A stretch of 28,975 bases of DNA from Gemmatimonadota bacterium. Its GTDB lineage: Bacteria > Gemmatimonadota > Gemmatimonadetes > Gemmatimonadales > GWC2-71-9. Every line of letters starts with the position of its first letter. Positions within the stretch are counted from its first letter, which is position 1. The notes under the pieces are model-generated. The model worked only from the letters and a program-made list of their open reading frames with translations, was not told where the DNA came from and made no database searches. The translations under genes were made by a program, and so were the position numbers. This document shows positions 3,760-27,100 of the stretch, one piece after another. Where the stretch lies: positions 1 through 28,975 of the forward strand of contig JBDHKN010000109.1 in the NCBI GenBank assembly GCA_039586365.1. Direction: 5' to 3'.

Positions 3760-4539
3760 TCACCACTTGAGACCGACTCGCGCAGCTGCGATTTTGAGTC
3801 CGAGCAGAGTCAGATGGGGTTCGTGGGCCTCTATCTCTTGGCTCAGCGGTACGATCTTGTCCGCCAGGCCACCGGTTGCCACCACGTAGGGGACCCCTCC
3901 GTCGGGCCACTCGGCCTTGATCCGCCGCACGATTCCATCCACCGCTTCTGCGGTGCCGAACAGCACGCCGGCTTTGATGCAGTCTTCCGTACGTCGGCCG
4001 ATAATGTGACTGGGCGGCTCGAGCTCGGTCGCCGGCAGTTTCGCCGCCCGCTGACTCAACTCCTCAGCGGCTGACTGGAGACCGGGAGCTATCACGCCGC
4101 CCAAGAATCGGCCCTCTGCGGTGATGCAGTCGAAGGTAGTGGCGGTGCCGAAGTCGACTACCACGGTGTCCCGCCGGTACAACTCGGCGGCCGCGAGCGT
4201 GTTTACTATCCTGTCAGCTCCTACCTGCTTGGGTTCTTCCACGTCGAGCACAACAGGCAACGGTGTAGAGGAATCGATCAGAACCGGTCTGATCCCGATG
4301 GCAGTCTCCACACCCTGACACAGGTTCTCAGTCACCGACGGAGCAACCGAGGCAGCAATCGCGGCGCCTATCTCATTGGTGGAGTGACCAGCGTGACTCA
4401 AATAGGAAGTGAGCGTGGCGGCCCACTCGTCGGAGGTTCGCCGTGCCAAGGTGGTGAGCCGCCAGTCGGCACTCAGTTGATCCCCGGCGAAGAGACCCAC
4501 CGTGATCTCGGTATTGCCGACATCAACTACCAGCAGCAT
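3760..4539 (-). CDS. coaX: Type III pantothenate kinase
   Basis: [35 protein letters not shown]. Confidence 0.96.
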
Positions 4540-5551
4540 CGGGCCGACCCTCGCCAGGTATCCGCTCCACGAGGCCCTTCTCTCTGGCCACCCAGTAGCA
4601 CAGCAGACCGGCGATGAGCAGCGTCACGAACCAGACGGATGGTGGCACGCCTGCCTCGTCAGCCGCGCCGGCGGCAACCGGACGCGCCAGTTCGACCGCC
4701 CAATAGCTGGCCGCAAATGCGGCATTGTATGCAGCCGACACCAGCAGCGAGCAGGACAATACGAAGAGACATCCCGCTGTCACGGCAGCTACACCGCTCA
4801 AGAGTGCGCCCGCCGTTCCGGTGACGCCAGCCCGGGCAAGTATGACGTACCAGGCTGTTGCGGCCACCCCGGCGGCCAGCACCGTGAGTAGGCCAGAGTT
4901 CCCGGAGCAGCCAATGAACAGGCGACGGAAGGCAACTTCTTCAGTGATGAGCTTCGAGGTTACACCGATCGCGAACAGGAACAAGAAAGACGGTAAAGCG
5001 GCGGCCCGACACGTCAGCAACTCACTCTCGGTCACGCTGGATTGTCCCAGCGTGACCAAGCAGAAACGCGCGCCGCTGGCGGAGGATGCCGCGGGGCTCG
5101 AAAACAGCAGGCCGATGATATGCGGCAGCAGGGCCAAGCCAAGCGCGATCGCGTACCACCTTACGTACGGTCGCTGTTTCACCATAGCGAAGCCGAACCC
5201 CAACAGCACCGTACCGGCCAGGACCAGAACGAACATCCCGACATCGGCGAAGTCCGTGAGTGCTTCGGAGGTCCCAAGTCGCGACAGTAGCAGCAGAGCT
5301 GCGAGCAGCAGCGCGACTGCCAGCACCGCCGGGATCGAGAATTTCCGGCGGTAGGGCCCTTCGGGCCAGATTCGACTGGGAAGATGCATCCCGCGCAGGA
5401 TCGAGAACGCGATCACCCCTACGCCAATCAACCCGACCGAGCTGCCGACGCTACTCGTCAATGCATCCGTGCTGAGGAGCCACCACGACGCAAACAAGAG
5501 CAACCCCGCCGCGACGCCACGAGCCCAAATCGGGAGTTCACTGGGTGACAA
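4523..5551 (-). CDS. Multi-pass membrane protein, degenerate CPBP/Abi (CAAX protease-like) family
   Basis: Many hydrophobic segments; EEVAFRR matches CPBP motif 1 (EExxxR). The expected His motifs are not seen. Overlaps both neighbours. Confidence 0.6.
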   Translation of the reverse strand: MSPSELPIWARGVAAGLLLFASWWLLSTDALTSSVGSSVGLIGVGVIAFSILRGMHLPSRIWPEGPYRRKFSIPAVLAVALLLAALLLLSRLGTSEALTDFADVGMFVLVLAGTVLLGFGFAMVKQRPYVRWYAIALGLALLPHIIGLLFSSPAASSASGARFCLVTLGQSSVTESELLTCRAAALPSFLFLFAIGVTSKLITEEVAFRRLFIGCSGNSGLLTVLAAGVAATAWYVILARAGVTGTAGALLSGVAAVTAGCLFVLSCSLLVSAAYNAAFAASYWAVELARPVAAGAADEAGVPPSVWFVTLLIAGLLCYWVAREKGLVERIPGEGRPDAAGS

Positions 5552-6278
5552 CGCTACCTCCTACGACTCGCTGGACTCCACGATCAGTGTCCACCAGCAG
5601 TGCACCGTCCTCATCTATCCCGGCGGCCGTTCCGCTGATGGGATTGCGTAGGCGCCTGCCACGGAGCCAATCATGTCGCGAATACCACTCACGCTCGTTG
5701 CCGCTCATCTTGGGGGAATGCGACACTCGCTGGAGCCTGGGGACGAGCCGCTCCAACACCTCTATGCGAGTGATTCCGGGTTTCACGTCATGCAGCGTAG
5801 CGGCCTGTGCTCCGATCTCCAGTGGCAGTCTGCCGCTCACGTTGATGCCGATGCCAAGAGCTATCCATCGCATCCGGGAGCCCATCCAGCGGGCTTCGCT
5901 CAGCACTCCCGCCACCTTGCTTCCCTCGAGCATCACGTCGTTGGGCCACTTGAGGTGGCTGGCGATGCCGAGATCTTGCAGCGTGGCAACCAGCGCAAGG
6001 CCCACCCTGAGGGACAAGACGCCAGGTTCCAGCTGAGTCTCGGGACGTACCAGATAGCCGAGCCATATACCCGTTTGTGGTGGGCTGCTCCACCGCTTGC
6101 CGAAGCGGCCGCGGCCAGCCACCTGCTCGTCGGCCAGCACCACGCTTCCGTCTGGCGCTCCTTCAGCCGCGAGTTCATGTATGATGTCCAAGGTGCTCGT
6201 AACTCTGGCGAGACTCAGGCAACTGGGCGCCTTGAGCCGTGCGGCCAGTTCCGAGGGTTCCAAGCCGTCGTAGCTCAT
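5538..6278 (-). CDS. birA: Biotin--[acetyl-CoA-carboxylase] ligase (no N-terminal HTH)
   Basis: QVAGRGRFGKRW, LKWPND, KVAGVL, GIGIN. ATG 6278 overlaps the stop of the uppP C-terminal remnant (ATGA). Confidence 0.93.
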   Translation of the reverse strand: MSYDGLEPSELAARLKAPSCLSLARVTSTLDIIHELAAEGAPDGSVVLADEQVAGRGRFGKRWSSPPQTGIWLGYLVRPETQLEPGVLSLRVGLALVATLQDLGIASHLKWPNDVMLEGSKVAGVLSEARWMGSRMRWIALGIGINVSGRLPLEIGAQAATLHDVKPGITRIEVLERLVPRLQRVSHSPKMSGNEREWYSRHDWLRGRRLRNPISGTAAGIDEDGALLVDTDRGVQRVVGGSVVTQ

Positions 6279-6596
6279 CCGATTACCACCCACCCAAGCG
6301 TGATCAGACCCAACACCAGACAATACGGTGCAAACCGATGAAACCTACCTTGCCACAGCAGTCGAACCAACACACGGATAGCGAAGATACCGGACAGGAG
6401 AGCCGACGGAAATCCCCAGGAGCGGACCTGTGCCTATCGCTCCTGCGTCTAGAGTTGCATCGGGTAGCTGCAGCAAAGCCGCACCTAGAATCGCCGGGAT
6501 CGCTAGCAAGAACGAGCACTCTGCTGCAGGTTGTGCGTTTACTTTGACCCACATCGCGGCTGATATGGTGGAGCCGGAACGCGATACGCGGGGGAC
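6275..6596 (-). pseudogene. uppP: C-terminal fragment of undecaprenyl-diphosphate phosphatase (frameshifted)
   Basis: VPRVSRSGSTISAAMW...AAECSFLLAIPAILGA matches BacA PGxSRSG..T and SFLL.IP motifs. After a frameshift near 6407-6413 it continues SALLSGIFAIRVLVRLLWQGRFHRFAPYCLVLGLITLGWVVIG*. Confidence 0.88.
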
Positions 6597-6601
6597 GCTC
6601 C

Positions 6602-6741
6602 TCGCATTATCATGTCGTGATACTCCCAAAAACGGCCATCCTCGGCTGCCTTGACCGAATCAGGATGCGTGAAGCCATCACGGCTCCGCCTCCGAATCCA
6701 GCCACGGCCACGGCGGCAGTGAGCAAGTAGAATCTACGTAC
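6602..6741 (-). pseudogene. Internally deleted remnant of a DsbA-like thioredoxin-fold gene
   Basis: Manual translation: VRRFYLLTAAVAVAGFGGGAV (membrane-anchor-like, from 6741), then in another frame HPDSVKAAEDGRFWEYHDMIMR (6667-6602), resembling DsbA H.P.A..AA...QG[KR]FW.[YM]HD. No CxxC remains. Confidence 0.5.
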
Positions 6742-7028
6742 CGTAGCTTGTATGAAATCACCCTCCGGTCTGAACAGCGGTATCGAATCCTCCGGTCGGC
6801 AAGCAGTCCGCTTCGTCCCAATCTACTGCAAGGCAGGCCACACACACAGTTGCGGGTTCCGACGAAGCCCCCGCGATTGCGGTGCAGACGCTACCCACGA
6901 CGGCTACCCGCCGCAGCGATTCGAATGGGCGATCCGCAATCGACCCTGGAATCCTTGCGTCGGATTCTGTATTGTGCGGCTTCCGATTTCATGACCAAGA
7001 AGCCAGGGAAACAACCAGGGACACCCGC

Positions 7029-9515
7029 ATGGCAGCTGAGTACTCGGTGGATCTTTGCAAGAAGTTGGAGAAGCGCTTCGGCGGCCTGCAGCTGCACCGG
7101 CCGTTCCGCATCGAGCGCTATGATGCAGGCGACGAACTCGAATACGACGTTACGCCCACCGACGCACCGGGAACTTCATGCCGCGTCAGATTGGCGGTCG
7201 AGCAGTTTGTCGGAGGCGGGTTTGCCGGCCAGGTGTACAGAGTCCGGGTGAAAAGATCGACCGGCGCGATGGAAAGGGTGCTACCGACCGGTGGCGTGTT
7301 CGCACTCAAGATCCTCATTCCGCCGAGCGCGGGCTCGCGCTTGTTCAGGAACGTGCTGCACGTCATCGGCTTTCAGGGAGTTTTCCAGCTGCAGACAAAT
7401 CCGATTGCAGCCAGGGCCGGCGCGATCTGGCAGAAGTTCATAAGGCGGGGCGCGCGAATCCGGTTCGGTGACGAATCGTGCGTCAACGACGTGCACTGCA
7501 CGTTCGTCGATCGAAGGCTCGGCAGTTGCGGCGAGATCAGCGACTGGATCGACGGCAGAGTCTGGCAGTTGGAGGTCGACGACCGCGTCGACCTCTTGAA
7601 ACGGTGGAGAAAGGGGAAGCCGGTCGATCCGACAAAGCTCGGGTCGCCGGAATACCGCGCCAAGCGGCAGTTCATGACCTCGTTTGTACGCCTGTTGAAC
7701 GACTTGGGGGCACACGAATTCGCCAGGCAATATGAATGGACGACATGTAAGAGCCAGCCCAACTGTCTCAAACGAACATCCACCGAGGGAAAAGCGGACG
7801 CGGGCCTGGTAGCCGTCGACTTCAGGGCCGGCCTGACTTTGCTGCCATTCCTCCCGATGAGTCCCGGCGACTTCCTGCTCATTCTCAAGGGCCTCGGTCG
7901 GGGTAGTCTGGTACAGTTCGATCGCGGCAGTTTGAAGAAACTCAGGGCCTTCGTGCAGGAACACGCCGCGGACTTCTCTGACATGACCGGCCTGCTTGCG
8001 GAACTCGAGCGGGCCGAGAGGGTGTACCGAGATTCCCTCATAGACGTCACCCACAATCACGTCAGGCTACTGTTCAGTCGGTCGTTGTGGAAGCAGATTC
8101 TTGCGAGCGCGGTTACGGGATGGCGCGTTCGCGGGCTCATCGACGACCGGCATGAGGCAACCCTTCGTGGCCGCACCCTGCCGGTGTTGCTGGTGCAGAC
8201 CGTAGGTCTGGTACCGTTTGCCGGAAGAGCACTGATCAAGACCTGGGGAGAGGCCAGCTACAGACGCCACTATCGCGCGTTAATCACGAGCCCAGGTTAC
8301 CTCGGAAGAGCCTTTGCGGGGAAGATGCTCGAGCGAGTAGTGGTCTGGCATCGAGCTGGGAGAATCGCGGAGCACAAGGCCGAGAAAGTGGCGAGCAGCG
8401 GGCTCTCCTTCTTTGGCCATGCGATCGCCTCGGTCCTTCCTCTGGGAATCCATAAGTGCCTGACCGACCGAATTTACCTCAGAGAACGCCTGTACCACCT
8501 CATCGTACGTCCGGTCAAGCTCTACTTCGACGCGGAGCTTCGTGAGGAGTGGCTGCGCGACATGGTGTCGGAGGGCCGCAAGAAGCGCATAATAAGCGAG
8601 GACGATTCCGCGACGATTCTGTCACGGATCAAGGAACCGTTCATCCAGAAGTACCTGAAGTCGCTTGCCGTACACGTCTGTACCTTGCCGGTAACACAGG
8701 TGGTCTCGGTCTTTGTCGCCGTGTTGTACGTGCTGCTCCACCCCGAGATGCCGCGTGCGCAGTCATGGACAATTGGATTGGGGATCATCGCGCTGTTTCA
8801 GGTCGTGCCCATATCTCCTGGCTCGCTGGTGCGAGGCTTCTACGTCGTGTACTTGGTTGTAAGAGACCGCAACTTCAAGGACTACAATATTGCGGTGTTC
8901 CTCGGGTTCTTCAAATACGTTGGATACCTGGCATTCCCGATTCAGATGGCGTACCGCTACCCCACTCTCGCCAGATTCATGGCGGCCCACTGGGCGACGG
9001 AGGCCGTTCGTATTGTGCCGGTGTTCGGCGAGAATGGCGCTCTGTTGGAACACAAGGTGTTTACGTGGTTCTACAACGTGCCGCTGACACTCCGCGGACG
9101 GATGCGGAGACGCGCGGATGCTCGTGCGGTCAAGGCGTCGCGACTGGTGCACGTTCTTCCACTGGCCGCCGGCGCCGCGGCAGCCCTGGCGACGGCTCAA
9201 CACTACTTCGGCCACTTCACCAGAGGCGTGCCCAGCCTTGCAAGCATCTGGTGGGCCATCCTGTTGGTCCCACTGCTGTTCGGATCGTTTGCGACTCTGA
9301 GCGCCGGTGGGGCTGACCTCGGCAAGCGCGTCATTGGAGCTGCGCTGTGCGGAGCAGCTACAGGCGTTCTCTTTTCGTTGGCATCGTTGAGTTTGGCGGG
9401 CTGGGTGGCGACGCCAGCCGGGATCCTGGCAGCGACTGTGTGGGTGGTATTCATCCTGACCGTACTCTCACCGATCGGCGCGATAGTCACTGAAGTGAGC
9501 CTGCCTGAACCCTAG
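7029..9515 (+). CDS. Uncharacterised protein-kinase-like (probable pseudokinase) domain fused to a multi-pass membrane domain, 828 aa
   Basis: Long intact ORF; ATG 7029 with AGGGA upstream. G-loop FVGGGFAGQVYRV, beta3 FALKIL, hinge SDWIDG, CKSQPNCL, AVDF; hydrophobic helices in the C-terminal part. Confidence 0.75.
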   Translation: MAAEYSVDLCKKLEKRFGGLQLHRPFRIERYDAGDELEYDVTPTDAPGTSCRVRLAVEQFVGGGFAGQVYRVRVKRSTGAMERVLPTGGVFALKILIPPSAGSRLFRNVLHVIGFQGVFQLQTNPIAARAGAIWQKFIRRGARIRFGDESCVNDVHCTFVDRRLGSCGEISDWIDGRVWQLEVDDRVDLLKRWRKGKPVDPTKLGSPEYRAKRQFMTSFVRLLNDLGAHEFARQYEWTTCKSQPNCLKRTSTEGKADAGLVAVDFRAGLTLLPFLPMSPGDFLLILKGLGRGSLVQFDRGSLKKLRAFVQEHAADFSDMTGLLAELERAERVYRDSLIDVTHNHVRLLFSRSLWKQILASAVTGWRVRGLIDDRHEATLRGRTLPVLLVQTVGLVPFAGRALIKTWGEASYRRHYRALITSPGYLGRAFAGKMLERVVVWHRAGRIAEHKAEKVASSGLSFFGHAIASVLPLGIHKCLTDRIYLRERLYHLIVRPVKLYFDAELREEWLRDMVSEGRKKRIISEDDSATILSRIKEPFIQKYLKSLAVHVCTLPVTQVVSVFVAVLYVLLHPEMPRAQSWTIGLGIIALFQVVPISPGSLVRGFYVVYLVVRDRNFKDYNIAVFLGFFKYVGYLAFPIQMAYRYPTLARFMAAHWATEAVRIVPVFGENGALLEHKVFTWFYNVPLTLRGRMRRRADARAVKASRLVHVLPLAAGAAAALATAQHYFGHFTRGVPSLASIWWAILLVPLLFGSFATLSAGGADLGKRVIGAALCGAATGVLFSLASLSLAGWVATPAGILAATVWVVFILTVLSPIGAIVTEVSLPEP

Positions 9516-9535
9516 CGCAGTTATCCCTCCCCGAT

Positions 9536-9863
9536 CTTCCAAGCACCCGTGCACCTACACTGCTTGCGTTGGGTGATCACGACCTGCACGGGCTCGAGAT
9601 CATGAACGAAGTATTGGATCCCACGGACGGAGACATGCACCTGTGGCCAGGACAGCTCTATGGATCCTTGAGGCAGCTCACCGATCTTGGCTTTGTCACG
9701 GAGGTCGAGCAGCCCCCCCGAGGCCGAGCACGGAGGTGGGCGTCCCCGGTACCACAGCATCACCGATGAAGGACGTCGTGTTCTGGCAGACGATGTCAGC
9801 CGACTGGCCCGGTCCGTGAAGGACGCCCGTTTGAAGAAACTCGTGAGCCGTTCGGAGGCGTGA
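9536..9863 (+). pseudogene. PadR-family transcriptional regulator (5' truncated, frameshifted)
   Basis: LLALGDHDLHGLEIMNEV...LWPGQLYGSLRQL...GFVTEV. Removing one C from the C7 run at 9713-9719 gives GRPRYHSITDEGRRVLADDVSRL...SEA*. In-frame TGA at 9506 and no ATG before the domain. Confidence 0.85.
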
Positions 9864-9937
9864 TGGAGTACCGATTCTCTCGGAGCCTCTACAGGCTGTT
9901 GCTTTGGCTCTACCCGACCGCGTTTCGAGACAGGTAC
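9863..9937 (+). pseudogene. N-terminal stub of a PadR-associated (ADOP-type) permease/membrane protein
   Basis: TGATG coupling to the padR stop; [25 protein letters not shown] matches the 'YRxLLxLYPxxFRxxY' N-terminus typical of PadR-linked permeases. Similarity stops at the uppP junction. Confidence 0.65.
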
Positions 9938-10059
9938 ACTCCCGGCATGGCCAAGCCGAACATTGCCTGGGTCACGACCATTTGTCCGGAACTCGACACC
10001 GGCAGGAACTCGGTCAATCCCTGGACGACGCCGAGTACCAGGCCTTGCAGCCACGTCAT
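9910..10059 (-). pseudogene. uppP: N-terminal fragment of undecaprenyl-diphosphate phosphatase
   Basis: ATGA-coupled to the bshA stop. Manual translation [41 protein letters not shown](YLSRNAVG*) contains the BacA motif [14 protein letters not shown] with H changed to Q. 49 aa, absent from the ORF track. Confidence 0.92.
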
Positions 10060-11186
10060 CCTCGCACCACGCGCTCGTAGAGGGCCTCGTACTGCGGCAC
10101 AACCAGCTCAGTGGCAAACTCCCTGGCACGGGCGACTGCGGCAGTCCTGGTGGCGGCGTAACGCGCCTCATCGCGAAGCAGCTCCACCGCTCTGGCAGCC
10201 ATGCCATCTACGTCACCCAGTGGCATCAACGCACCAGTCACACCATCCACCACGACCTCGGGCAGGCCACCAACCTTGCTGGCCACCACAGGTACGCCGC
10301 AGGCCATGGCCTCGAGGGCGCTCAACCCAAACGACTCGGATCTGCTGGGCAGCAAGTAGAGATCGGCAGCCCGCAAGAGATCGGCCACGGCATCGACTTT
10401 TCCCAGGAAACGCACCCGATCAGCCACCCCCAAGCGCACCGCCTCTGCCTCAGCTTCTGGCCGTTGCGGTCCGTCACCGGCCAGGACCAACACTGCAGGG
10501 ATCTCCCGCTGGACCAGCTCGAATATCCGCACCACGTCGGGGACCCGCTTGACCTCACGGAAATTAGAGATGTGGGTAAGCACCTTGGAACCCGGAGGAG
10601 CAAAAGAGCCGAAACAATCCGATCTGGCTTCGCACGGATAGTATTCCGCCGGACTCACGAAGTTGGGAATGACTTCGATGCCGCACCCGACGCAACCGAA
10701 CTCCAGGTACGTCGCATCGCGGAGGTACTCCGAGACCGCGGTCACGGCGTCGGACCGTTCGATAGCGAACTTGACGACGGTGAAAAACGATTTCTCCAGC
10801 CCGACCAGCGTGATATCGGTGCCGTGTAGCGTCGTCACGACTTTGATGTCGTGGTCTTCCTCCAGCATCTGTTTGGCCAAGAAAGCAGCAGGGGCGTGCG
10901 GAATGGCGTAGTGCACGTGGAGAATGTCGAGCTGTTCCCGCAGCGCCACTTCGTGTTGCTTGACGGCCAGGGCCAGCGAGTAGGGGAAGTACTCCAGTAG
11001 TGGATATGCTCCACTCAGATCCACTTCGTGGTAAGAGACGTGCTGGTCGAATCCCCGCAGTCGGAAAGGCGATGCGTAGGAAATGATGTGAACCTCATGA
11101 CCCCGACGTCCCAGCTCCAGAGCCAGTTCGGTGGCGACAGCTCCCGAGCCTCCGTAGGTGGGATAGCAGGTGAGCCCAATGCGCAT
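10056..11186 (-). CDS. bshA: N-acetyl-alpha-D-glucosaminyl L-malate synthase (GT4)
   Basis: [58 protein letters not shown] coupling to miaA. Confidence 0.93.
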
Positions 11187-12109
11187 CAGCCATCTCGTCC
11201 TTTCCAAAGGTGAAACAATCGCTCAGCCAGCAGGTTGGGGCGCTCGGTCGCATCCAACGTCACCACGGGTGCATCGCCCAGCTGGTGCCGGAACCAAGTC
11301 TCTTGCCGCTTGGCATATCTCCTCGTGCTCTGCACTATCGCTTCCGCTAGCTGCTCGGGCGACAACTGCCCCCGCAGATACTGAATGACTTCACGGTACC
11401 CAACTCCATCCAAGCCCCGTGCGTCGGCGGGCACTCCTTCCGCCAGCACCGCTTCCACTTCGGCCACCAAACCTGCGGCGAGCATGTCGGCAGCTCTCTG
11501 CTTGATTCGCGCGTGGAGCACCGGCCGGGGAACCGTCAGTTGGACATACCACGGCCGCATGACACCTTCAACCTTGGCCCGACTCTGCCACCACGATAGA
11601 GGTCTACCCGTGAGCAACGCGACTTCGATCGTTCTAGCCGCCCGCTGTCTGCCACCTCCGGAGTAGCATGTGTCGAGGCGCTTTGCCCAGCGTCCGAGAC
11701 CTGCCGCAGTGCGCGCCCACTGACGCAACCGCTCACGTCTGGCGGAGTCCATGGGTGGCTCGCGGAACAGGCCGTCAGCCAGCGCACGAATGTAGAAACC
11801 GGTGCCCCCAACCACCCAGGGTTGGGTCCCGGCAGGCACAGCACCCAGCCAACCCACTGCCTCAGCAGCGAACCGGCCGGCACTGTAACGATCCCCAGGA
11901 TCCACTATGTCGATGCCCATATGTGGCACCACAGACTGCTGCTCCACGGTCGGTTTCGCGGTACCGATGTCCAGCCGTCGATAGATCTGTCGTGAATCGG
12001 CCGAGATCACCGTCACGGGTAGGTGCCGGGCCAGTTCCATGACGACGGCGGTTTTCCCGACCGCGGTCGGGCCCAGGATGACAGGGATCAAGGGCCTAGG
12101 CGCGTCCAA
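11186..12109 (-). CDS. miaA: tRNA dimethylallyltransferase
   Basis: GPTAVGKT, SADSRQIY, DIGTAKP, VGGTGFY, TRRYAKRQETWF. Start likely TTG 12109 with GGAG upstream. Confidence 0.96.
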   Translation of the reverse strand: MDAPRPLIPVILGPTAVGKTAVVMELARHLPVTVISADSRQIYRRLDIGTAKPTVEQQSVVPHMGIDIVDPGDRYSAGRFAAEAVGWLGAVPAGTQPWVVGGTGFYIRALADGLFREPPMDSARRERLRQWARTAAGLGRWAKRLDTCYSGGGRQRAARTIEVALLTGRPLSWWQSRAKVEGVMRPWYVQLTVPRPVLHARIKQRAADMLAAGLVAEVEAVLAEGVPADARGLDGVGYREVIQYLRGQLSPEQLAEAIVQSTRRYAKRQETWFRHQLGDAPVVTLDATERPNLLAERLFHLWKGRDG

Positions 12110-13838
12110 ACCTGCGCTCCAGTTCACTCAGGGGTAGCTGTACGATCGAGGGTCGACCGTGCACGTCGTGGGGGGGCAGTTCACACGCTAACAATCTGTG
12201 CAACAGGTCCCTGACCTCACCATGATCCAGTGTCTGTCCCGCCTTGATGGCGGCACGACAGGCATAGGTCGCGGCAAACCGCTCCAGCCGATTCAACCCC
12301 TCCAGCCGACCATGCGCCAGATCCGCAACCAGCTCTTCGAAGCAGCGTCGGGCGTCGAACCGGGGGTGAGGATTCGGCACGGCATGGATGACGACTGACT
12401 GGCCACCGAATCCCTCTACCTCGAAACCGATGGCATTGAGTTGTTCCTGATTCTGCTCCACGGCCTCGAGTTCGGGTGGTTCCAGATCGACAGTGAGTGG
12501 CAGCAGGAGACGCTGAGCCGCGCCACCCCCCGCTTTGAGTTCCGCCATCGCACGCTCGTAGAGGACCCGCTCGTGAGCCGAATGCTGGTCGACTATGGCA
12601 ATCCCAGCCGGAGTCTCGAACAGGATATAGGTATCGAATACCTGGAGGAATTTACGGCCATAAGCGGCGACCGAAGCTGGCGGGCCGTCGAGAGCAAGAC
12701 CCAACGTACCGTATGTGCCAGCGTCCTCGCGGCGGCCCGGGAAACCGGAGCGCTGGTCTGGCACAGAACCCACGAATTGCCTATCGTCTGTCCCGGCAGC
12801 GTCGCGGTCCAACCCGACCATCCGGACCGCTGCCTCCAGCGGCCGCAACGCGTCGCGCACCGCCTCCTCGACAGCACGCTCGATGAACATCTTGTCGCGA
12901 AACCGGACTTCGAGTTTTGCCGGGTGCACGTTGACGTCGACCCTGTCACCGGGAATCCCAATGGCAAGAAACAGCGTCGGTCGCACGCCGGCAGGAATCG
13001 TGGCGCGGTATCCGTTCTCTGCCGCGCGAATCAAAAAAGGGTCTCGGAACGGCCTGCCGTTGACGAACAGGTGAGCCTTCCGGCCACTCGATTTGGCTTC
13101 AGCCGGCCGCTGCACGAAACCACGAATGGAGATCGGACCGTTGGCGTAGTCGACCGGCAGGAGTTGTGCGGCGAGCTGCCTCCCGAACAGTGCTGCGACC
13201 CGATCGGCGACCGCCGAAACCCTGGGTGCAGTCAGCAAGGTCCTGCTATCACTCACGAGTGAGAAGGAAACGTCCAACCGCGCCAGCGCCAGCACGGTCA
13301 GGGCCTGCACTGCCGCGCGAGTTTCTGACCGCTGAGATTTGAGGAACTTGCGCCGGGCCGGCGTATTGAAGAACAACCTCTTGACCGTCACTGTCGTACC
13401 CTGGTTCCGGGCCACCGGCTCGACTTTCTCGATGCGGCCGCCGCGCGAAACGACCTTCGTCCCTTCGCCGGCCGCCGTGGCTTCCGACGACGCAGCAGCC
13501 GACTCCAGTTCGAGCAGCGACACAGAGGCAACCGAAGGCAGGGCCTCACCGCGAAACCCGTAGGTGGCTACACCGATCAGGTCCGTGGTAGAGGAGATCT
13601 TGCTGGTGGCGTGGCGATCGAGCGCGAGGACCGCGTCTTCCCGGTCCATCCCCACTCCATCGTCCGACACTCGAATGAGCGCACGCCCACCGTCCTCCAA
13701 CTCGACAGCAATGGTATACGATCCAGCATCGAGCGAATTCTCGACCAGTTCCTTCACAACCGAAGCAGGTCGTTCGACTACCTCGCCGGCCGCAATCTGG
13801 TCGGCTACGGTATCGGACAGGACTCTGATCCGGCCCAT
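12096..13838 (-). CDS. mutL: DNA mismatch repair protein MutL
   Basis: Start at ATG 13838 (MGRIRVL; TGATG coupling). IAAGEVVERPASVVKELVENSLDAG, GFRGEAL, DVNVHPAK, DQHSAHERVLYE, QRLLLP, ACRAAIK. Confidence 0.97.
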   Translation of the reverse strand: MGRIRVLSDTVADQIAAGEVVERPASVVKELVENSLDAGSYTIAVELEDGGRALIRVSDDGVGMDREDAVLALDRHATSKISSTTDLIGVATYGFRGEALPSVASVSLLELESAAASSEATAAGEGTKVVSRGGRIEKVEPVARNQGTTVTVKRLFFNTPARRKFLKSQRSETRAAVQALTVLALARLDVSFSLVSDSRTLLTAPRVSAVADRVAALFGRQLAAQLLPVDYANGPISIRGFVQRPAEAKSSGRKAHLFVNGRPFRDPFLIRAAENGYRATIPAGVRPTLFLAIGIPGDRVDVNVHPAKLEVRFRDKMFIERAVEEAVRDALRPLEAAVRMVGLDRDAAGTDDRQFVGSVPDQRSGFPGRREDAGTYGTLGLALDGPPASVAAYGRKFLQVFDTYILFETPAGIAIVDQHSAHERVLYERAMAELKAGGGAAQRLLLPLTVDLEPPELEAVEQNQEQLNAIGFEVEGFGGQSVVIHAVPNPHPRFDARRCFEELVADLAHGRLEGLNRLERFAATYACRAAIKAGQTLDHGEVRDLLHRLLACELPPHDVHGRPSIVQLPLSELERRFGRA

Positions 13839-14486
13839 CAGAGTCCGATGATCTCCGCTGCGCGAAGCCAGCCTTGCTCGTCGCCTCGCTGGGCGAGGAC
13901 CCACTGGCCTTCCACACGGGACACCTCCACAGCACTGCCTTGCTCGAGGGAACGGCGCGCCGGAGCGGTACCATAGGGAGCCCACCGTAACGGTGTATCC
14001 GCGGCACCGACGATAGCGACCGGCCGGGCGTACTCGTGTCGCACGTATGCGCCGAAGCCACCCAGCAGAAGCGCAGCAACGACCAACACCAGCCCAGCAA
14101 GCGAGCGCCGCCAGGAACGCTTCGCCTTGAGTGACGGGAGAGATCCGAGTGAGTCGCCGCGAGATCCTGTCCGTAACCGGAATGAGTTCGAGCGCCTCGC
14201 TCACGTGTCCGTTGCGCGGACTGAGCCGCGCGGCACGCAACCACGCAACTCTGGCCCGAGAGACCTCCCCGAGCTGATACAGGCTGTTGCCCCAATTCTG
14301 CCAGTGACCCGAGAACCAGGGCTCCTGTTCTGCTCGCACTCTGAAGCTGTCTGCAGCAGACCGGAAGGCACCCGCCTCATAAAGGCGTTCGGGAGACTGA
14401 ACCAGCGATTGGCCCAGCGTCCCGGTCATCACGACGAGCACTATTGCCCCAATCAGCACCGGACGCTCGGTGTCAGCCGTACGCAC
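13838..14486 (-). pseudogene. BatE-like TPR + TM + SH3-like region, frameshifted
   Basis: TPR-like segment (NWGNSLYQLG..RARVAWLRAARLSPRN) lies in the mutL frame. The TM and SH3-like tail (LRWAP...LEQGSAVEV..VEGQWVL...GWL) lies in another frame ending at 13838. Shift near 14090. Confidence 0.75.
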
Positions 14487-16123
14487 GTCAGCGCCCGCAG
14501 GACTTCCTCCACTTCACGAGCCAGCTCGGTGGGATCAAGGCCACCTTCCGGCCCATAGTTCGCTTGCCACAGTCGATCGCGCACCCGGGCAGCGTGTGCC
14601 GCCACAGGTGCTTCGACGCCCACAGCACGCAACGCGTCTACCAGCCCTCGCGCATCCCTCGTCTCGGCGTCGGGCACCAGTTCTGCCAGAGCCCCGTGGA
14701 ATTCTCGCTCGAGGTGCTGCAGGGCACTTGGGGTGGCTTTGGCTTCTTCCGTGGCCCGTAGCTGGCGCCGCTCGACCTCCCGAGCGAGTCCCACCAGGGC
14801 CGGCGCCAGCGCAACCACAAGCAGCCAGATCCACAGCGGTATCCGTCGGACCAACCGTGCGACGTCGAAGACTGCCGGAGGGTCGGCGAGCGGAAGTGGC
14901 TGCTGCGGTCGCTCAACCAGGCCGGCCAGGTCTCCTTCAGTGACGACTTCGATAGCTTCGAGCCTGAGCGTTACGTATCGGCGCGCATCCAGATCGAAGT
15001 AGTCGTACGTTGGGGCTTGGATGCTGTGCACTCCAACCGAGTCGGGCACGACCAGGAACCGGAACACCTTGGTGCCGGCCATCTGACCTTCCCGCGGGGC
15101 GATCTCCACCTCGACGTTCTCGGGGTAGACGTTGAGCCCCTCGGGCCAAGCAAGTGTCGGCTCGGGCCACAGGGCCACATTCCCGCGACCCGACAGAGTC
15201 GCGACCACCGTACCGGCATCACCCACCTTCAGCTGTGAGGGGTCAACCTCTACTGTGAATCGCAACTCTGCTGCACCGGTGCCTTGGAACTGTGCAGGTC
15301 GTCCCGCTGAGGGCTGAGGTAGCACTTCGACTTGTGCAGGTTCACTCTGAGGCTCGTGTCTCACTTCACGACTCAGAAACGAGTAGGTGACCGGCAGGCT
15401 GTACGAGACGGTCGCCGGATCGATATGCAGCACGCCCGGACTCAGAGGGAAGACCACTTCATGATAGACGTAGATGTCGTACGTGACACCGCCGACCCGT
15501 CTACTCACCACGACGGCACCGGGAGCGTTCTGCTGATAGATCCAAGCTCCTTGCAGCTGTGGTGGGAGCAGAGTCGGTGGTATCCTGAGCCTGGACCTTA
15601 TAGCCCGCGGGAACCAAGCTAGCACGACGAGGTCCAGTTGCTCGCCGAGGACCACCCTGTCGCGGGTCGTCAGAACTTGAACGCTGACTTCATCTGACGA
15701 CATTGGCGGGGGCGCCCGCCGTTCCACAAACGATCGGATATGAGGTTGCAGAGACACGGAGATCTCCGCTCCGCCTCCGGTTACGGTCAACTCAATCGGG
15801 TCGGTGCTGACTTCCACCTCCGCCTGAATCACGCGTACGGCGCCTATCGTCACCCGACCCGACCTGGTCGCAGCAAGGCGAATGTCTCGCGTCGTGATCC
15901 GTGTGAGTATTCCAACATCGACCGACACATCTGATCGTTCGCTCGTCCCCCGCACTTCCAGCCCATCCAGCGCCGGATCCACGATCCGAATCGGCTCGTT
16001 TCCGGTCGCTCGCACGCTGATAGTCAGAACCACTTCCGTGCCGAACTCCAACTCCCGTCTGTCGACGGTGGCGGTCGCTTGCACCTGCTGCAAGGCAACG
16101 ACGGCGGCGCAGAGCAGTATCAC
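14453..16123 (-). CDS. batD: BatD-family protein (possibly the 5' part of a broken BatD-BatE fusion)
   Basis: Signal peptide, ATATVDRREL, repeated beta-sandwich segments, SGRGNV..WPEP, YDYFDL, TM helix; position after the VWA genes. Confidence 0.8.
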   Translation of the reverse strand: MILLCAAVVALQQVQATATVDRRELEFGTEVVLTISVRATGNEPIRIVDPALDGLEVRGTSERSDVSVDVGILTRITTRDIRLAATRSGRVTIGAVRVIQAEVEVSTDPIELTVTGGGAEISVSLQPHIRSFVERRAPPPMSSDEVSVQVLTTRDRVVLGEQLDLVVLAWFPRAIRSRLRIPPTLLPPQLQGAWIYQQNAPGAVVVSRRVGGVTYDIYVYHEVVFPLSPGVLHIDPATVSYSLPVTYSFLSREVRHEPQSEPAQVEVLPQPSAGRPAQFQGTGAAELRFTVEVDPSQLKVGDAGTVVATLSGRGNVALWPEPTLAWPEGLNVYPENVEVEIAPREGQMAGTKVFRFLVVPDSVGVHSIQAPTYDYFDLDARRYVTLRLEAIEVVTEGDLAGLVERPQQPLPLADPPAVFDVARLVRRIPLWIWLLVVALAPALVGLAREVERRQLRATEEAKATPSALQHLEREFHGALAELVPDAETRDARGLVDALRAVGVEAPVAAHAARVRDRLWQANYGPEGGLDPTELAREVEEVLRALTCVRLTPSVRC

Positions 16124-17730
16124 CAATCTCGTCTCGCGCGAGTTTCCCGTAGCGAGGAGCGATTGCGCAACAACCTCTGGCGGGCCCGCCGCTCCTCTTC
16201 AGCAATCGAGTTGAGAATCTGCTCTGCCTGTGCCACACTCAATCCCTGAGGTGGCAGCGGTTCCTCCGTCTCGTCTGCGCTAGGCGGCGTTCCGGCGGCG
16301 GCGCCACCCTGTTGCGGCATTCTCCGCAACGCCACCTCAAGATTCCATTTTGCGTTCGCATCTCCGGGCCGCAGCAGGAGCGCTTCGCGATAGTGGCTCC
16401 TCGCCGCCTCGAGGTGCTCGATCTGGTTGAGCGAGTCTTGCGCAGCGAGCTGCAACTCGACGAGCCCCAGGTTGTATCTCGCGCGGAACCTGACCGCTGG
16501 ATCCACTGAACCCGCTGCTCGTTCCAGTGCCGTGCGGGCGACACCGGAATCGCCAGCCGTCCAGGCAGCCGTCCCCAGGTTGAACCACACCGTATCACCC
16601 CCCAAGCCGGCAGTGGCCTGCTCTAGGTACAGTATCGCAGCGCGCGCGTAGTCTCCGTCCAGCCACGCCCTGTCGGCCGCGTTGCCTGGCGCCTGTGCCT
16701 GGAGATCCGTCGCCGTAGCCAAGGAAAGCACCACCCCAACGAGCGCCGCAGTACGACGCGTCACAGTGTGCAGCAACAGCACGAGTACGGCTACCAGCAA
16801 GGGAATCCAGGCTCGGGAGACATCCTGAGCTGCCGTCGTAGTTGCCGTAGGAGCCCGCTTGAAGGCCAGCACCATTTCGCGCACCGCACCCGCTTGGTCG
16901 TTCACCTCCGCCGATACGAAGATGCCGCGCGCCGCATCCGCGACGACCGAGAGGATATCGTCGCGGCGTCTAGTAGCTACGATGTTCTCCGCGGGGTCTC
17001 GCTGATAGCCGATCAGTTCACCGGTTTCATCGCGCACCGGGATTCGCGCTGGCTCACGACCACCCTCGGCAACCAGTATCAGGTGCACTCCCATTCGCCG
17101 CAGCTGTTCCGTCTCGGCAATGATATCCGGCAGCGAGTCATGGGCCTCACCATCAGTGAACACGACCAACACACGATCGGCCACTTCGTCGCCCGCCAGC
17201 AGGAGCTCGCGGCCCCGGCGAATCGCGCGCGCCAGTTCACTGCCACCGGCACTGGTGAGATCCGGGTCCAGCGCGTCCACCATCAAGTGCAGCGCACTCC
17301 CATCGATCGTCAGTGGGGACAAGGTGAAGCTCTCGCCCGCAAATGCCACCAGCCCAATCCGGTCCCCTTCCAGATCGTGGATGAGCCTACGTGCCTCACG
17401 TTGTGCTCGCATCAGTCGTGACGGTGCCACGTCTTCAGCGAGCATTGACCGCGAGATGTCTACCGCGAGCACCAGGCTCAAGCCCTTGGTCTCTGTCTCG
17501 ACCACGCGAGTGCCCCAGCGTGGGCCGGCGAGTCCCACCGCCGCGCCCAAGGCGGCCAACCCCAAGAACAGTGAGGCTACCAGGCCATGGCTTGCGGCCG
17601 TCTCAGCCAAGGCGTTGGACCAACGTGCTGCGCGGCGAATTCGGGTGGCACGAGCCCACAACGCGAGGCCGATGGTGGCGAGCGCCACAGCGGGCGCCAT
17701 GAGAAGCAGGTATGCGGAGTCGAACGCCAT
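16120..17730 (-). CDS. VWA domain + TPR protein (BatB-BatC-like fusion)
   Basis: AGPRWG, MIDAS DISRSM, DVAPSRL, FTDGE; TPRs (WFNLGTA, ARYNLG, AKWNLE); C-terminal ..RDW. Confidence 0.85.
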   Translation of the reverse strand: MAFDSAYLLLMAPAVALATIGLALWARATRIRRAARWSNALAETAASHGLVASLFLGLAALGAAVGLAGPRWGTRVVETETKGLSLVLAVDISRSMLAEDVAPSRLMRAQREARRLIHDLEGDRIGLVAFAGESFTLSPLTIDGSALHLMVDALDPDLTSAGGSELARAIRRGRELLLAGDEVADRVLVVFTDGEAHDSLPDIIAETEQLRRMGVHLILVAEGGREPARIPVRDETGELIGYQRDPAENIVATRRRDDILSVVADAARGIFVSAEVNDQAGAVREMVLAFKRAPTATTTAAQDVSRAWIPLLVAVLVLLLHTVTRRTAALVGVVLSLATATDLQAQAPGNAADRAWLDGDYARAAILYLEQATAGLGGDTVWFNLGTAAWTAGDSGVARTALERAAGSVDPAVRFRARYNLGLVELQLAAQDSLNQIEHLEAARSHYREALLLRPGDANAKWNLEVALRRMPQQGGAAAGTPPSADETEEPLPPQGLSVAQAEQILNSIAEEERRARQRLLRNRSSLRETRARRDW

Positions 17731-18710
17731 CAGGGGACCCGCACAATGACGGTAGCGGCCAGCGTGAACTCGAGCACCAGTGCGGCGAACCCCACCAGCA
17801 CCAGCGGCTCGTACGACTCATCGAAATCGGTATGCCGAATGACAGTGACAGGCGTGGTCTCCAGTTGATCTATCTGTCTGAAGATTCGGTTCAGAGCCTC
17901 CGCGTCCGTCGCCCTGAAGTAACGTCCACCCGTGATCCGAGCCACCTCTCGCAGTAGATCTTCGTCTATTTGAACGGGAAGCATCTGGTAGCGGATCTGT
18001 CCCAGCGGACCCCGCCCAATCGGCATGCGTGCTTCCCCGTCCGTTCCCACGCCGACAGTGTACACCTTGATCCCAAGCCTCTCTGCTGCACGAGCGGCCG
18101 TGATCGGATCGACTGTCCCTCTGTTGTTCTCGCCATCGGTGAGCAGCACCATCACCTTGCTCACGCCCGGGGCGTGTCGCAGCCGGTTCGCCGCCGTTGC
18201 AATCGCACTTCCGATGGCTGTGCCGTCTTCCAGTTCCCCCACCCGTATCTGATTGACCGCCTCTTCGAGGACCCGGTAATCCACGGTGATCGGCACTCTG
18301 GTCAAGGCGTCGGCCGCAAATACTACGAGTCCAATCCGGTCAAATTCCCGCCCGTGAATGAAGGCTACTGACTGCTCCTTGGCGACATCGATGCGTCTAT
18401 AGGGCTCAAAGTCTTCCGCCAACATGCTGCTGGATAGATCGACGGCAAGCACAATGGCAATGCCTTCGCTGGTGACTTCGCTCGACCCCGGCCCGAGATG
18501 GGGTCCCGCGGCCGCAAATATCCAGGATCCCAGCGCCAGCGATCTGAGCGCCGCCGGTATCTCTGCGATCCAGCGTCGGCGCGTCACCGCCTGCGACAAC
18601 GAAGCCACATCACTGTACGAACTGACGACCCTCGGTCGCCGCCAGCGCCACCACCACCAGGCTGGCAGTGCGACCAAGCAGAGTAGCACCCAAGGCCGGG
18701 CTACGATCAT
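17730..18710 (-). CDS. batA: BatA-like VWA domain membrane protein
   Basis: N-terminal TM, AVDLSSSMLAEDF, DRIGLVVF, GTAIG, LLTDGENN, TGGRYFRA, C-terminal TM. Confidence 0.88.
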   Translation of the reverse strand: MIVARPWVLLCLVALPAWWWWRWRRPRVVSSYSDVASLSQAVTRRRWIAEIPAALRSLALGSWIFAAAGPHLGPGSSEVTSEGIAIVLAVDLSSSMLAEDFEPYRRIDVAKEQSVAFIHGREFDRIGLVVFAADALTRVPITVDYRVLEEAVNQIRVGELEDGTAIGSAIATAANRLRHAPGVSKVMVLLTDGENNRGTVDPITAARAAERLGIKVYTVGVGTDGEARMPIGRGPLGQIRYQMLPVQIDEDLLREVARITGGRYFRATDAEALNRIFRQIDQLETTPVTVIRHTDFDESYEPLVLVGFAALVLEFTLAATVIVRVP

Positions 18711-19549
18711 GTATCACCCTCCCCGGCCGGGCCCGCAGGCAACGATTGCAGCAACTCATCCGCCCGCGCCGCCAACTCAACGACATCGCTGGGGACCGCG
18801 GGCGCGAACTGGGCTCGATCGAGCGAGTGAAGAACATCTCTCAAGGCCCGTATGGGCCAATCCGGCCGCTCCGCTTCGATGGTCTCGAGACACTCCGCCG
18901 TGCTGAGCTGCCGGCGGGCCTGCGGAAGTCCTTGCTCGATGCGAGACCGCACTACGTCTGTGACTGCCGACACCGCAGCTCTCAGCTCGCCAGCCTGAAT
19001 CCACTGTTCGATGGGGGGGTAACCGAACTTCCCCCGCCTGCCGTGCCACACCGGCCGTTCAGCCACTCGCAATCTGGCATGCCCCCATATGCCCATGGCG
19101 ATCACGACGAGTGATGCTAGCACGGCAACGATCCAAGCTCGCTGCTGCCGGCGCGCAAGAGGCCCCAGGGAAGGTTTGGGTGCGATGGCGGAGTCTGCGG
19201 CGGGGAGTACTGATCTTACGCTCACCCAGGCCGTATCCCCTGCGATGTGCTCGACGTGTCCATCAGGATAGGAGAGCTCCATATCCGGCATGACCACGGC
19301 GTGTTCACCAGGCTCGAAGAACGCCAGGGTGAATCTGACGAGTACCCTGCCCTCGGCGTATCCGATGACGGGATCGTCTAGTGGCTCGAGCGTGGCGCTC
19401 GACCCGATGGCTGTCACGTGTGGCACTACGCCCGGAGCGGCGATCACCTGGCGCGTCAGGTGCACGGTGTCGCCGATGGTCACCTCAGGTGGTGTGACTG
19501 TCCAAGCGGAGCCCTGTGCCGCACACAGCAGGAGGACAAGCGTGATCAC
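18707..19549 (-). CDS. Hypothetical membrane-anchored protein of the bat cluster
   Basis: Signal peptide, beta-rich domain, one TM, helical tail; coupled to DUF58 and batA. Confidence 0.7.
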   Translation of the reverse strand: MITLVLLLCAAQGSAWTVTPPEVTIGDTVHLTRQVIAAPGVVPHVTAIGSSATLEPLDDPVIGYAEGRVLVRFTLAFFEPGEHAVVMPDMELSYPDGHVEHIAGDTAWVSVRSVLPAADSAIAPKPSLGPLARRQQRAWIVAVLASLVVIAMGIWGHARLRVAERPVWHGRRGKFGYPPIEQWIQAGELRAAVSAVTDVVRSRIEQGLPQARRQLSTAECLETIEAERPDWPIRALRDVLHSLDRAQFAPAVPSDVVELAARADELLQSLPAGPAGEGDT

Positions 19550-20442
19550 CGTCTCAGCCGCCGGGCTCTCTCAGCGAATACACGATGCAGGACCTCCGCA
19601 TACGGACGGTCGGTTCTCAGGGCAACGTGGTCCACACCGGCCTGCTTGAGAGCGCGCGCCCGGGCGAGCCTGACCCCCTCTGCCGCGATCTGCAGCTTGA
19701 GACGTGCTCCCTCACTCGAGGTGTCTATGAGGATCCGATCATCCGACTCGGCGTCACCAAGATCGATCCAACCCACATTTGGCAGGTTACTTTCCCGCGT
19801 GTCGTCCACCGTTATGGCCACGACCTCGTGGCGACGCACCAGACTACGCAGCGCCTCTTCCCATCCTTTGGCTCGGAAATCGGACAGGACGACAACTATG
19901 GAGTGATGCCGCAACAAGCGCGAAACGTAGTTGAGCGCCAGCGCGATATTGGTACCACGCTGCTGGGGGGCAAACGCTATGAGGTCGCGGATCACTCGCA
20001 GCGCGTGTCTCCTGCCCTTGGTTGGCGGGACGACATGATCGATGCCGGAGGAAAATATCACGGCGCCGACGCGGTCGTTTTGCCTGGCGGCGGCGAGGGC
20101 CAGCACGGCGGCGACCTCAACAGCCCGCTCGGCCTTAGTGCACGGCCGACCGAACTCCACCGACCCCGAGCGATCCACCACGAGCATCAACGTCAGTTCA
20201 CGCTCTTCCTCGAATGTCTTGACGTAGGGAGATCCCATCCGAGCCGATACGTTCCAGTCAATGGAGCGGTACTCGTCACCGGGCTGGTAGGCGCGCACCT
20301 CTGCGAACTCGATACCCTGGCCGCGGAATACGGAGCGGTATTCACCCGAGAAGAGAGTGTTCACGAGCCGCCGCGCCCGGAGCTCGATTCGCTTCACCTG
20401 CCGCAGAACGTCTGCTCCGACGACACGGGCTGGATGCATCAC
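19546..20442 (-). CDS. DUF58 domain protein
   Basis: GEYRSVFRGQGIEFAEVRAYQPGD, IDWNVSAR, FEEERE, VDRSGS, LSDF. Confidence 0.92.
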   Translation of the reverse strand: MMHPARVVGADVLRQVKRIELRARRLVNTLFSGEYRSVFRGQGIEFAEVRAYQPGDEYRSIDWNVSARMGSPYVKTFEEERELTLMLVVDRSGSVEFGRPCTKAERAVEVAAVLALAAARQNDRVGAVIFSSGIDHVVPPTKGRRHALRVIRDLIAFAPQQRGTNIALALNYVSRLLRHHSIVVVLSDFRAKGWEEALRSLVRRHEVVAITVDDTRESNLPNVGWIDLGDAESDDRILIDTSSEGARLKLQIAAEGVRLARARALKQAGVDHVALRTDRPYAEVLHRVFAERARRLRR

Positions 20443-26239: not shown

Positions 26240-27100
26240 TCACAATGCGGCAAGCTCGGCGCCGCAGCGCTCACAGTACCACTCGGTCGGCAGGTTCATC
26301 GTTCCACACTCATCACACTTGAGGGTCTTCGCAGCAGCTTTGCTGCCATCGTTCGACGCCACCCCACCCTTCGGAGAGATCTCAGCCCGAGTCTCCCCAG
26401 TTTGTGGCTCCGAAAACGCCTCGGGAATGATCCGCATCTTGCCGCTGGCCCTCGCAGGTGCCGGTCCCTGGCTCTCGTCTTCTGTCACCGACCTGAGGAA
26501 CTCGAGTTCCTCAACTGGCTCCTTTTGAGGTTGAGTCTGCTCCGCAGCAGCGGGTTTTCCTGCTGCGACATCTGCGGGCTGGGAGGCTGGAGGTGACACG
26601 ACTTCTCCCAGCAGCTTGGTAACTGCTTCAGTTTCCGCTGCCCCTTCGGAGACCGGTTGCGGGCTGGCTTCCAGCAAGCCCATCACCTCATCCAGTCTGG
26701 CTATCTCGGCATCCAGGCTAGTCAACTCCTCCCGAATCTTCGCCAGAGACTGCGTTATTTCGGCTTGCTCTTCAGACCAGCGAGTCTCGTCGAACTCCCC
26801 TACCGTGTGTCGGAGTTCCGCCTCAGCCAGCCGCTCCGCCGCATCAGACTCCTGTGCGGCGAGCCCGTCGCGAACGGTGCGGTGGCGCTCTAGCGCTTCT
26901 GCTAGCTCGCCACTGTAGCTGTGTAATTCGGCGACGACTTCATCCAGGCGATTCTTGTAGTCCCTCTCGACCCTATCGCGCACCTGCCGCGGTGTTTTGT
27001 CGGCAGCGGTCTTGAGTCGATGCAGCCAGTGTTCGATCTTCTGCCGTTCCTGCAGCAGAGGTTCGATAGAGTCAACAGACTTCAATGGGTCTTTCGCCAT
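26240..27100 (-). CDS. Hypothetical coiled-coil protein with C-terminal zinc ribbon
   Basis: N-terminal coiled coil, acidic/Pro-rich linker, CDECG..N...EWYCERCG; GGAGG RBS. Confidence 0.8.
   Translation of the reverse strand: MAKDPLKSVDSIEPLLQERQKIEHWLHRLKTAADKTPRQVRDRVERDYKNRLDEVVAELHSYSGELAEALERHRTVRDGLAAQESDAAERLAEAELRHTVGEFDETRWSEEQAEITQSLAKIREELTSLDAEIARLDEVMGLLEASPQPVSEGAAETEAVTKLLGEVVSPPASQPADVAAGKPAAAEQTQPQKEPVEELEFLRSVTEDESQGPAPARASGKMRIIPEAFSEPQTGETRAEISPKGGVASNDGSKAAAKTLKCDECGTMNLPTEWYCERCGAELAAL

Follow-up and report, generated by a model that had tools for sequence, protein, structure and literature searches.

A kinase-like membrane protein family as a probable replacement of BacA/UppP, with displacement of bacA in place in a Gemmatimonadota bacterium

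Introduction

Gene X, our working name, is an intact open reading frame (ORF) at 7029..9515 (+) of a 28,975-nucleotide stretch of DNA, here called the window, from contig JBDHKN010000109.1 of a Gemmatimonadota bacterium (assembly GCA_039586365.1; genome G000 below). It encodes a kinase-like membrane protein of 828 amino acids that most likely represents a novel type of protein generating undecaprenyl phosphate. Here, it is caught displacing in place bacA, the gene for the undecaprenyl-diphosphate phosphatase BacA/UppP, which regenerates this lipid carrier of cell-wall synthesis. X is carried by an insert that interrupts bacA itself, X and BacA are nearly exclusive of each other in separate phyla, and the two genes occupy the same chromosomal slots. 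The insertion inside bacA and its staged clean-up are new here. From this evidence, X probably replaces BacA in supplying undecaprenyl phosphate.

Insertion of X inside bacA

X is transcribed opposite to a long run of minus-strand housekeeping genes. It lies in a 3.3-kilobase insert, from about 6597 to 9940, that interrupts bacA, and the middle of bacA is gone. The 5′ remnant of the host gene (codons 1-41; 9937..10059, −) was identified by its BacA match, and the 3′ remnant (about codons 154-252; 6302..6596, −) carries a frameshift near 6416. Outside them lie the host genes that flank bacA in relatives, namely a GT4 glycosyltransferase gene upstream (10056..11207, −), which we take to be bshA-like, and the biotin-protein ligase gene birA downstream (5538..6323, −). 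Intact bacA was found between these two genes in all five relatives showing the birA locus (G002, G003, G006, G007, and G008). The three bacA fragments at the insert are the only BacA matches in G000, which is 86% complete. X was not found in 40 of 40 relatives searched; across the phylum, 3 of 301 genomes carry it, one of them being G000.

The other genes of the insert are co-transferred remnants: a DsbA-like gene with a frameshift and a deletion of about 100 codons (6598..6988, −), a PadR-family gene with its 5′ end missing and a frameshift near 9716 (9560..9857, +), and the first 26 codons of a MacB/FtsX-type permease gene (9863..9940, +). An original prediction, made from the letters of the window, had described X as the only gene surviving in the inserted segment, and this was borne out; its kinase-like domain, membrane part, and selection are supported, as discussed below; the interruption of bacA and the near-exclusivity with BacA had been overlooked. 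The insert resembles a block of dsbA-like gene, X, padR, and permease in L001, L002, L017, L237, and L248 (partly also in L016), at 70-75% nucleotide identity. Because the synonymous distance to L001, L002, L016, and L017 exceeds 1.2, none of these four is the direct donor. A birA search in the donor-like genomes gave weak matches only. Misassembly was considered and rejected, as the remnants are frameshifted and X is joined to the same flanks in two further loci (L236 and L276) as well as in contigs from runs X2 and X5.

In L236, whose X protein is 94% identical, X occupies the same site, and the dsbA, padR, permease, and 5′ bacA pieces are gone. L276 (91% identical) shares the right junction, near bacA codon 40, and retains a different piece of the permease gene. 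Contigs were examined for 4 of the 24 listed runs: a run X2 contig spans the left junction of the insert, one run X5 contig passes from 9516 to 10051 across only 26 letters, and a second connects birA with the start of X while skipping parts of the 3′ bacA remnant. Taken together, these loci and contigs show one ancestral insertion that is being trimmed in different ways.

X has been under purifying selection since the insertion while relatives delete the debris. Compared with L236, which shares the insertion, the ratio of replacement to silent substitution rates (dN/dS) of X is 0.167 (95.5 silent and 52.5 replacement changes), near that of the flanking birA (0.142) and above that of the GT4 gene (0.077). 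None of the 48 changed residues lies at a near-invariant site, as judged by eye. This supports the selection that the original prediction had suspected. Silent divergence from L236 and L276 is 0.17-0.20 for X, below the values for the GT4 gene (0.33-0.51), birA (0.28), and miaA (0.38); the X allele may have spread between species by recombination.

Near-exclusive distribution of X and BacA

BacA was matched in 36 of the 40 non-carrier relatives (one of the 36, G021, being unpublished data), and the four without it are 63-88% complete. Three within-clade samples, each of which includes its center genome picked as an X carrier, were then compared. In the class of G325 (251 genomes), 1 carrier has BacA and 10 do not, and 235 non-carriers have BacA and 5 do not; two of the counted carriers have a split or partial X. 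The phylum of G333 (111 genomes) holds no carrier with BacA and 6 without, against 104 non-carriers with BacA and 1 without. In the class of G373 (121 genomes), none of the carriers has BacA and 31 lack it, and among non-carriers 88 have BacA and 2 lack it, with four BacA-positive genomes that gave weak partial X matches only counted as non-carriers. Pooled over the 483 genomes, 47 of 48 carriers are without BacA and 427 of 435 non-carriers have it, and the pattern repeats in separate phyla. In a FastTree tree of X, which has many open forks and was used for broad grouping only, the Gemmatimonadota, Cloacimonadota, Planctomycetota, and Desulfobacterales sequences fall in several groups.

Eight sampled genomes match neither BacA nor X (G413, G415, G607, G615, G629, G728, G760, and G803), for which incompleteness, reliance on PAP2 phosphatases only, or a further family are possible explanations. 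In G321, which has both genes, bacA stands behind a kinase-tetratricopeptide repeat (TPR) gene (L230:2808-6014), away from the GT4-birA slot, and was perhaps re-acquired.

Shared chromosomal slots

The two genes also share positions in other lineages. Nearly all of the 30 best-scoring of 104 Cloacimonadota bacA loci match the divergent polysaccharide deacetylase on one side (30 hits) and holA on the other (28-29 hits). X fills this deacetylase-[bacA or X]-holA-era slot in L013, L034, L035, L042, and L070, where holA and era are the names we presume for these genes. Carriers among the Phycisphaerae have the gene series DUF6263, HIT, HD, pgpA, X, two unknown genes (F3 and F4), purA, uppS, and cdsA. 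This arrangement recurs in the genomes G836 and G843, where the slot holds a remnant of X that lacks the kinase-like part together with a PgpA-BacA gene. At these loci (L224:2853-4933 and L225:2299-4736), the remnant, 250 amino acids long in L224, is followed by a 442-amino acid PgpA-BacA protein, possibly marking a return from X to BacA. The scan that showed the fusion was made on L224; L225 has a 442-amino acid ORF with both matches. PgpA is fused to X (P0132 and P0145) as well as to BacA (L224), and pgpA profile matches were found at 46 of 177 X loci.

Outside the lineage of G000, one of the 177 loci carries an intact X that is preceded, at a distance of about 290 bases, by a truncated bacA (L244:2981-3685). 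The tail of this bacA resembles the end of an upstream pilin-like ORF, and the locus probably represents an independent displacement.

The X protein family and its kinase-like domain

X belongs to a real, strongly conserved, and unnamed family. Among 8000 scored candidates, 3024 were homologs, with 484 representatives at 50% identity; 243 X-related stretches were found in GTDB genomes, and the best 79 loci were read. Record titles of homologs name Planctomycetota, Desulfobacterales, Cloacimonadota, Aminicenantes, Fibrobacterota, Gemmatimonadota, and others, mostly at 50-62% identity. A longer alternative GTG start is open at 6882; the nearest homologs have 828-829 amino acids and align from residue 1. 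No sequence match to X was found in Pfam, NCBIfam, or the PDB, including PF00069, and no kinase family was matched in the 29 family members examined. A search for a sigma-70-like promoter gave no match, and terminator matches were at chance level. Two variants stand apart: P0147, at 1216 amino acids, has a long extension at its C-terminus and gives a weak GDSL-like match, and two distant paralogs of about 600 amino acids (L226:2605-4353 and L227:2286-4112) have a kinase-like part and membrane core with a different loop. The genomes of these paralogs possess BacA, and a second subfamily may therefore serve another job.

The kinase-like domain (residues 25-345; 7101..8063, +) has 64 columns that are at least 90% conserved. 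Its glycine-rich loop, Gly62-Tyr70 (7212..7238, +), was located by alignment and profile comparison, and Lys94 (7308..7310, +), aligned to Hanks kinases, is the equivalent of the nucleotide-binding beta-3 Lys. The catalytic loop, Arg233-Asn245 (7725..7763, +), appears rewired, with Cys240 (7746) at the place of the catalytic Asp, Ser242 at that of the loop Lys, and Asn245 at 7761; Asp264-Phe-Arg266 (7818..7826, +) replaces DFG, to which it aligned at low threshold. In an alignment of 150 rows, with filled rows as denominators, Lys94 is present in 128 of 136 rows, Asn245 in 134 of 142, Asp264 in 138 of 141, and Arg266 in 129 of 139. Residue 240 is Cys, Trp, Leu, Met, Phe, Ala, Gly, or Arg and never Asp, and Asp or Glu occurs at positions 239-242 in 0 of 142 rows. 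Conserved arginines (Arg177, Arg233, Arg249, and Arg266) lie near the kinase-like site. The original prediction had read these motifs in this order in the 828-residue ORF, with a Cys for the catalytic Asp, retained ATP- and Mg-binding elements, a multi-pass membrane protein, and no named family. The ORF, motif positions, and Cys were confirmed, the conservation check extended the Asp loss to the family and the retention of Lys94, Asn245, and Asp264 to homologs, hydrophobic segments agree with a membrane protein, and the database searches left the family unnamed.

The kinase-like fold, which the original prediction had proposed without a catalytic Asp, is supported by profile comparison and language-model features. 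When the profile of residues 25-345 was compared by hhalign with 66 Hanks kinases, picked by motif from G000 itself, the probability was 91% (E 1.1e-6) over a region spanning the G-loop and beta-3 Lys; an ABC-ATPase control in the same comparison gave 0.2%. At low threshold the alignment continues collinearly, pairing Cys240 with the catalytic Asp, Ser242 with the loop Lys, Asn245 with Asn, and Asp-Phe-Arg with DFG. Among about 14,300 ORFs of the genome, 31 of the 82 weak matches to the X profile were Hanks kinases, and Atlas language-model features place X near kinase-like families (0.90-0.91). Thus, the N-lobe is supported by profile comparison, and we infer a kinase-like fold beyond it. A profile search also returned a kinase N-lobe match at E 0.36 and a weak match to a cytochrome b562-MurJ chimera (E 0.0017), the latter rejected as it centers on the point where the two parts of the chimera meet. 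Judging from the hydrophilic N-terminus and from basic loops, the kinase-like domain is probably cytoplasmic.

It is followed by a basic helical region (residues 346-535; 8064..8633, +) with two internal repeats (hhalign of 345-440 vs 430-535, probability 96.5%, E 8e-10) and by a conserved membrane core (residues 536-700; 8634..9128, +) with the near-invariant residues Pro594, Pro597, Arg602, Pro664, Gly667, Gly670, and Glu674. Profile comparison of the core with BacA (65 sequences) and PgpA gave probabilities below 1%, and a likeness of a core loop to the first BacA motif was rejected as not significant. An optional four-helix membrane module (residues 701-828; 9129..9512, +) is filled in 10 of 41 diverse full members, and its place is taken by PgpA in P0132 and P0145.

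Possible mechanism and alternative explanations

The original prediction had offered a nucleotide sensor, a lipid or small-molecule kinase, or an enzyme of unusual chemistry. Since X is nearly exclusive with BacA and the insert interrupts bacA, an enzyme or transporter of the undecaprenyl phosphate cycle is favored over a signaling pseudokinase or a SelO/SidJ-type protein modifier. No SelO/SidJ-type family match was found for X in Pfam, NCBIfam, or PDB sequences. The topology, substrate, and chemistry proposed here are what we infer. Lys94, Asn245, and Asp264 of the cytoplasmic kinase-like domain would bind ADP/ATP and a metal, the polyprenyl chain would be held by the membrane core, and the terminal phosphate of undecaprenyl diphosphate would pass to ADP, to be kept as ATP or released by hydrolysis as in the phosphatase mode of AceK. 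Such transfer to ADP, or ADP-dependent hydrolysis, in the cytoplasm has, in our estimate, somewhat less than an even chance of being the actual chemistry. In kinases, the catalytic Asp removes the proton of the hydroxyl group that accepts the phosphate; where one phosphate group passes to another, no such base is required, and an acid at that place would repel a diphosphate. A transfer of this kind would explain both why the catalytic Asp is lost throughout the family and why Arg177, 233, 249, and 266 are conserved.

Precedents exist for the separate parts of this proposal. Undecaprenyl diphosphate is the phosphoryl donor for LpxT (PMC2229476), AceK uses a kinase fold as an ADP- and metal-dependent phosphatase that requires catalytic Asp457 (PMC6591243), and a title in the reference list of PMC5396384 has an IP6 kinase running as an ATP synthase. 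A 2018 paper mentions a cytoplasmic pyrophosphatase of unknown identity (PMC5852022), and a 2025 review treats the restriction of the step to the outer leaflet as an open question (PMC12826051). We tentatively entertain the broader idea that X forms a third class among the enzymes that generate undecaprenyl phosphate, namely an undecaprenyl-diphosphate:ADP phosphotransferase of kinase fold that faces the cytoplasm and, rather than hydrolyzing the anhydride bond, conserves it as ATP. In this view, sediment bacteria limited in energy would have exchanged BacA for X in place again and again, with one swap in progress here.

Several observations weigh against replacement of BacA by this route. BacA is present in 4 of 78 carrier genomes (taken from the best 79 loci, with L019 dropped as the same isolate as L010, and completeness not given), and both genes occur in G626 too, making five coexistence genomes in all. 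Fisher values overstate the exclusivity because kin are not independent. Next to bacA, pgpA adjoins 7 of 32 Phycisphaerae loci read and no more. G000 has four PAP2 matches and PAP2 was found in 9 of 10 carriers tested, which weakens a claim of essentiality, as X need not be the sole route. The C-lobe alone gave a non-significant 0.3% against Hanks kinases. Recycled carrier is released outside, so that a flip, by the core of X or another protein, would be needed, and the AceK precedent depends on Asp457, the very residue type lost in X.

Of 31 Phycisphaerae carriers, nine match neither BacA nor PAP2, and a PAP2 match stronger than E 1e-14 occurs in a single one; five of the nine without either match were examined, with MraY-family genes in 5 of 5 and a PAP2_3 match in 0 of 5. 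These nine carriers speak for replacement of BacA by X and against the proposal that X is a nucleotide-driven, UbiB/COQ8-like flippase or extractor of undecaprenyl di- or monophosphate, leaving dephosphorylation to PAP2 or other enzymes. This proposal draws on the suggestion that BacA flips its own product (PMC5852022), on PAP2 matches kept in most carriers, and on the failure to find the DUF368 flippase family in G000, G042, and G050. A DUF368 match was likewise missing from the relative G006, which has BacA, and the carrier G357 does have one, so that DUF368 is uninformative here. The conserved core has two clear spans only, and we regard a flippase as rather improbable. An arrangement in which X replaces BacA through a phosphatase in its membrane core, gated by a pseudokinase that senses ATP/ADP, fits all the exclusivity evidence and the loss of both catalytic Asp and loop Lys; moreover, the near-invariant core residues sit in Pro/Gly loops resembling helix-break phosphate pockets. 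It is nevertheless unlikely, given 64 conserved columns in the kinase-like domain vs 14 in the core, beyond the needs of a simple sensor, and since profiles show no likeness between the core and either BacA or PgpA.

Other explanations part with BacA function altogether. X might be incompatible with BacA, or bacA might be lost for another cause, with X doing another envelope job: the bacteriocin lactococcin G uses UppP as its receptor (PMC4985602), an insert that hits bacA itself hints at an advantage in being rid of the gene, and PAP2 could cover the loss in G000. The rarity of BacA loss without X (8 of 435 non-carriers), the five genomes with both genes, and the BacA-positive G836 and G843 with their kinase-less X remnant, as expected of interchangeable genes, make this improbable. 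An undecaprenol kinase, making carrier from the free alcohol and ATP, would account for a nucleotide site joined to a membrane domain and would make BacA less needed. It is very improbable, as phosphorylation of an alcohol normally needs a base and positions 239-242 hold an acid in none of the rows, and the product of uppS, a gene of the same run, yields the diphosphate, from which a phosphate would still have to be removed. The pgpA matches and X-PgpA fusions could instead make X a partner of PgpA in phosphatidylglycerol synthesis. We give this idea hardly any credit: the BacA-PgpA fusion in the same slot shows that the PgpA link follows the slot, pgpA is not beside X in this window or in Cloacimonadota loci, and the exclusivity with BacA would go unexplained.

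Other genes in the window

Between birA and a type III pantothenate kinase gene, a 342-amino acid membrane protein without a Pfam match (4523-5551) is kept in relatives. A MoxR ATPase, DUF58, vWA, and BatD cluster (14453-21413) lies directly before mutL; in the mutL frame (12096-14486), the MutL domains are preceded by a TPR match. Further along are a 545-amino acid protein with only a weak N-terminal Rossmann-type match (21520-23157) and a coiled-coil protein with a C-terminal zinc ribbon (26240-27100).

Comparison with known systems

To our knowledge, only BacA and PAP2-family enzymes, both outward-facing, have been described for undecaprenyl-diphosphate dephosphorylation. We found no description of the X family or of its replacement of BacA in the literature within our scope, that is, outside subscription papers and supplements, and the available part of a 2025 pseudokinase review does not mention BacA, undecaprenyl, or lipid (PMC12599244). 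If the replacement is true, a kinase-like protein unrelated to BacA and PAP2 would add a route to a near-universal pathway and a new use of the kinase fold. The locus also shows in-place gene displacement at several stages.

By family matches and defining motifs, X does not appear to belong to the Hanks kinases, UbiB, BacA, PAP2, or MviN. Compared to Hanks-type Ser/Thr kinases and bacterial pseudokinases (PF00069; MviN and EssB), X shows the kinase succession of G-loop, beta-3 Lys, hinge, Asn, and DF motif, but it is without the HRD Asp and loop Lys, has DFR for DFG, and has no Pfam match. The UbiB/ABC1/COQ8 proteins resemble X in joining a kinase-like domain to C-terminal membrane helices and in dealing with isoprenoid lipids; unlike X, UbiB retains the catalytic Asp. 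X has no PF03109 match, and the carrier G357 has a separate ABC1 gene. MviN likewise joins a pseudokinase to a cell-wall membrane protein, but its pseudokinase binds no ATP and is without the Lys and Asp that X keeps (PMC12599244); its MurJ flippase domain was not found in X beyond the weak match at the chimera junction. AceK shares with X the putative removal of phosphate by a kinase fold, ADP- and metal-dependent in AceK (PMC6591243), and differs in being soluble, acting on a protein, needing Asp457, and showing no family match to X. LpxT and PAP2 enzymes (PF01569) also make undecaprenyl phosphate, LpxT by phosphotransfer (PMC2229476), and belong to another family with a periplasmic site and no match to X.

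Compared to BacA/UppP (PF02673), X is three times longer and has no sequence or profile similarity, no PF02673 match, and neither of the two BacA motifs. Its kinase-like domain is probably cytoplasmic, whereas the active site of BacA opens to the periplasm (PMC5852022). The two nonetheless occupy the same slots, are distributed almost exclusively of each other, share the fusion partner PgpA, and probably yield the same product.

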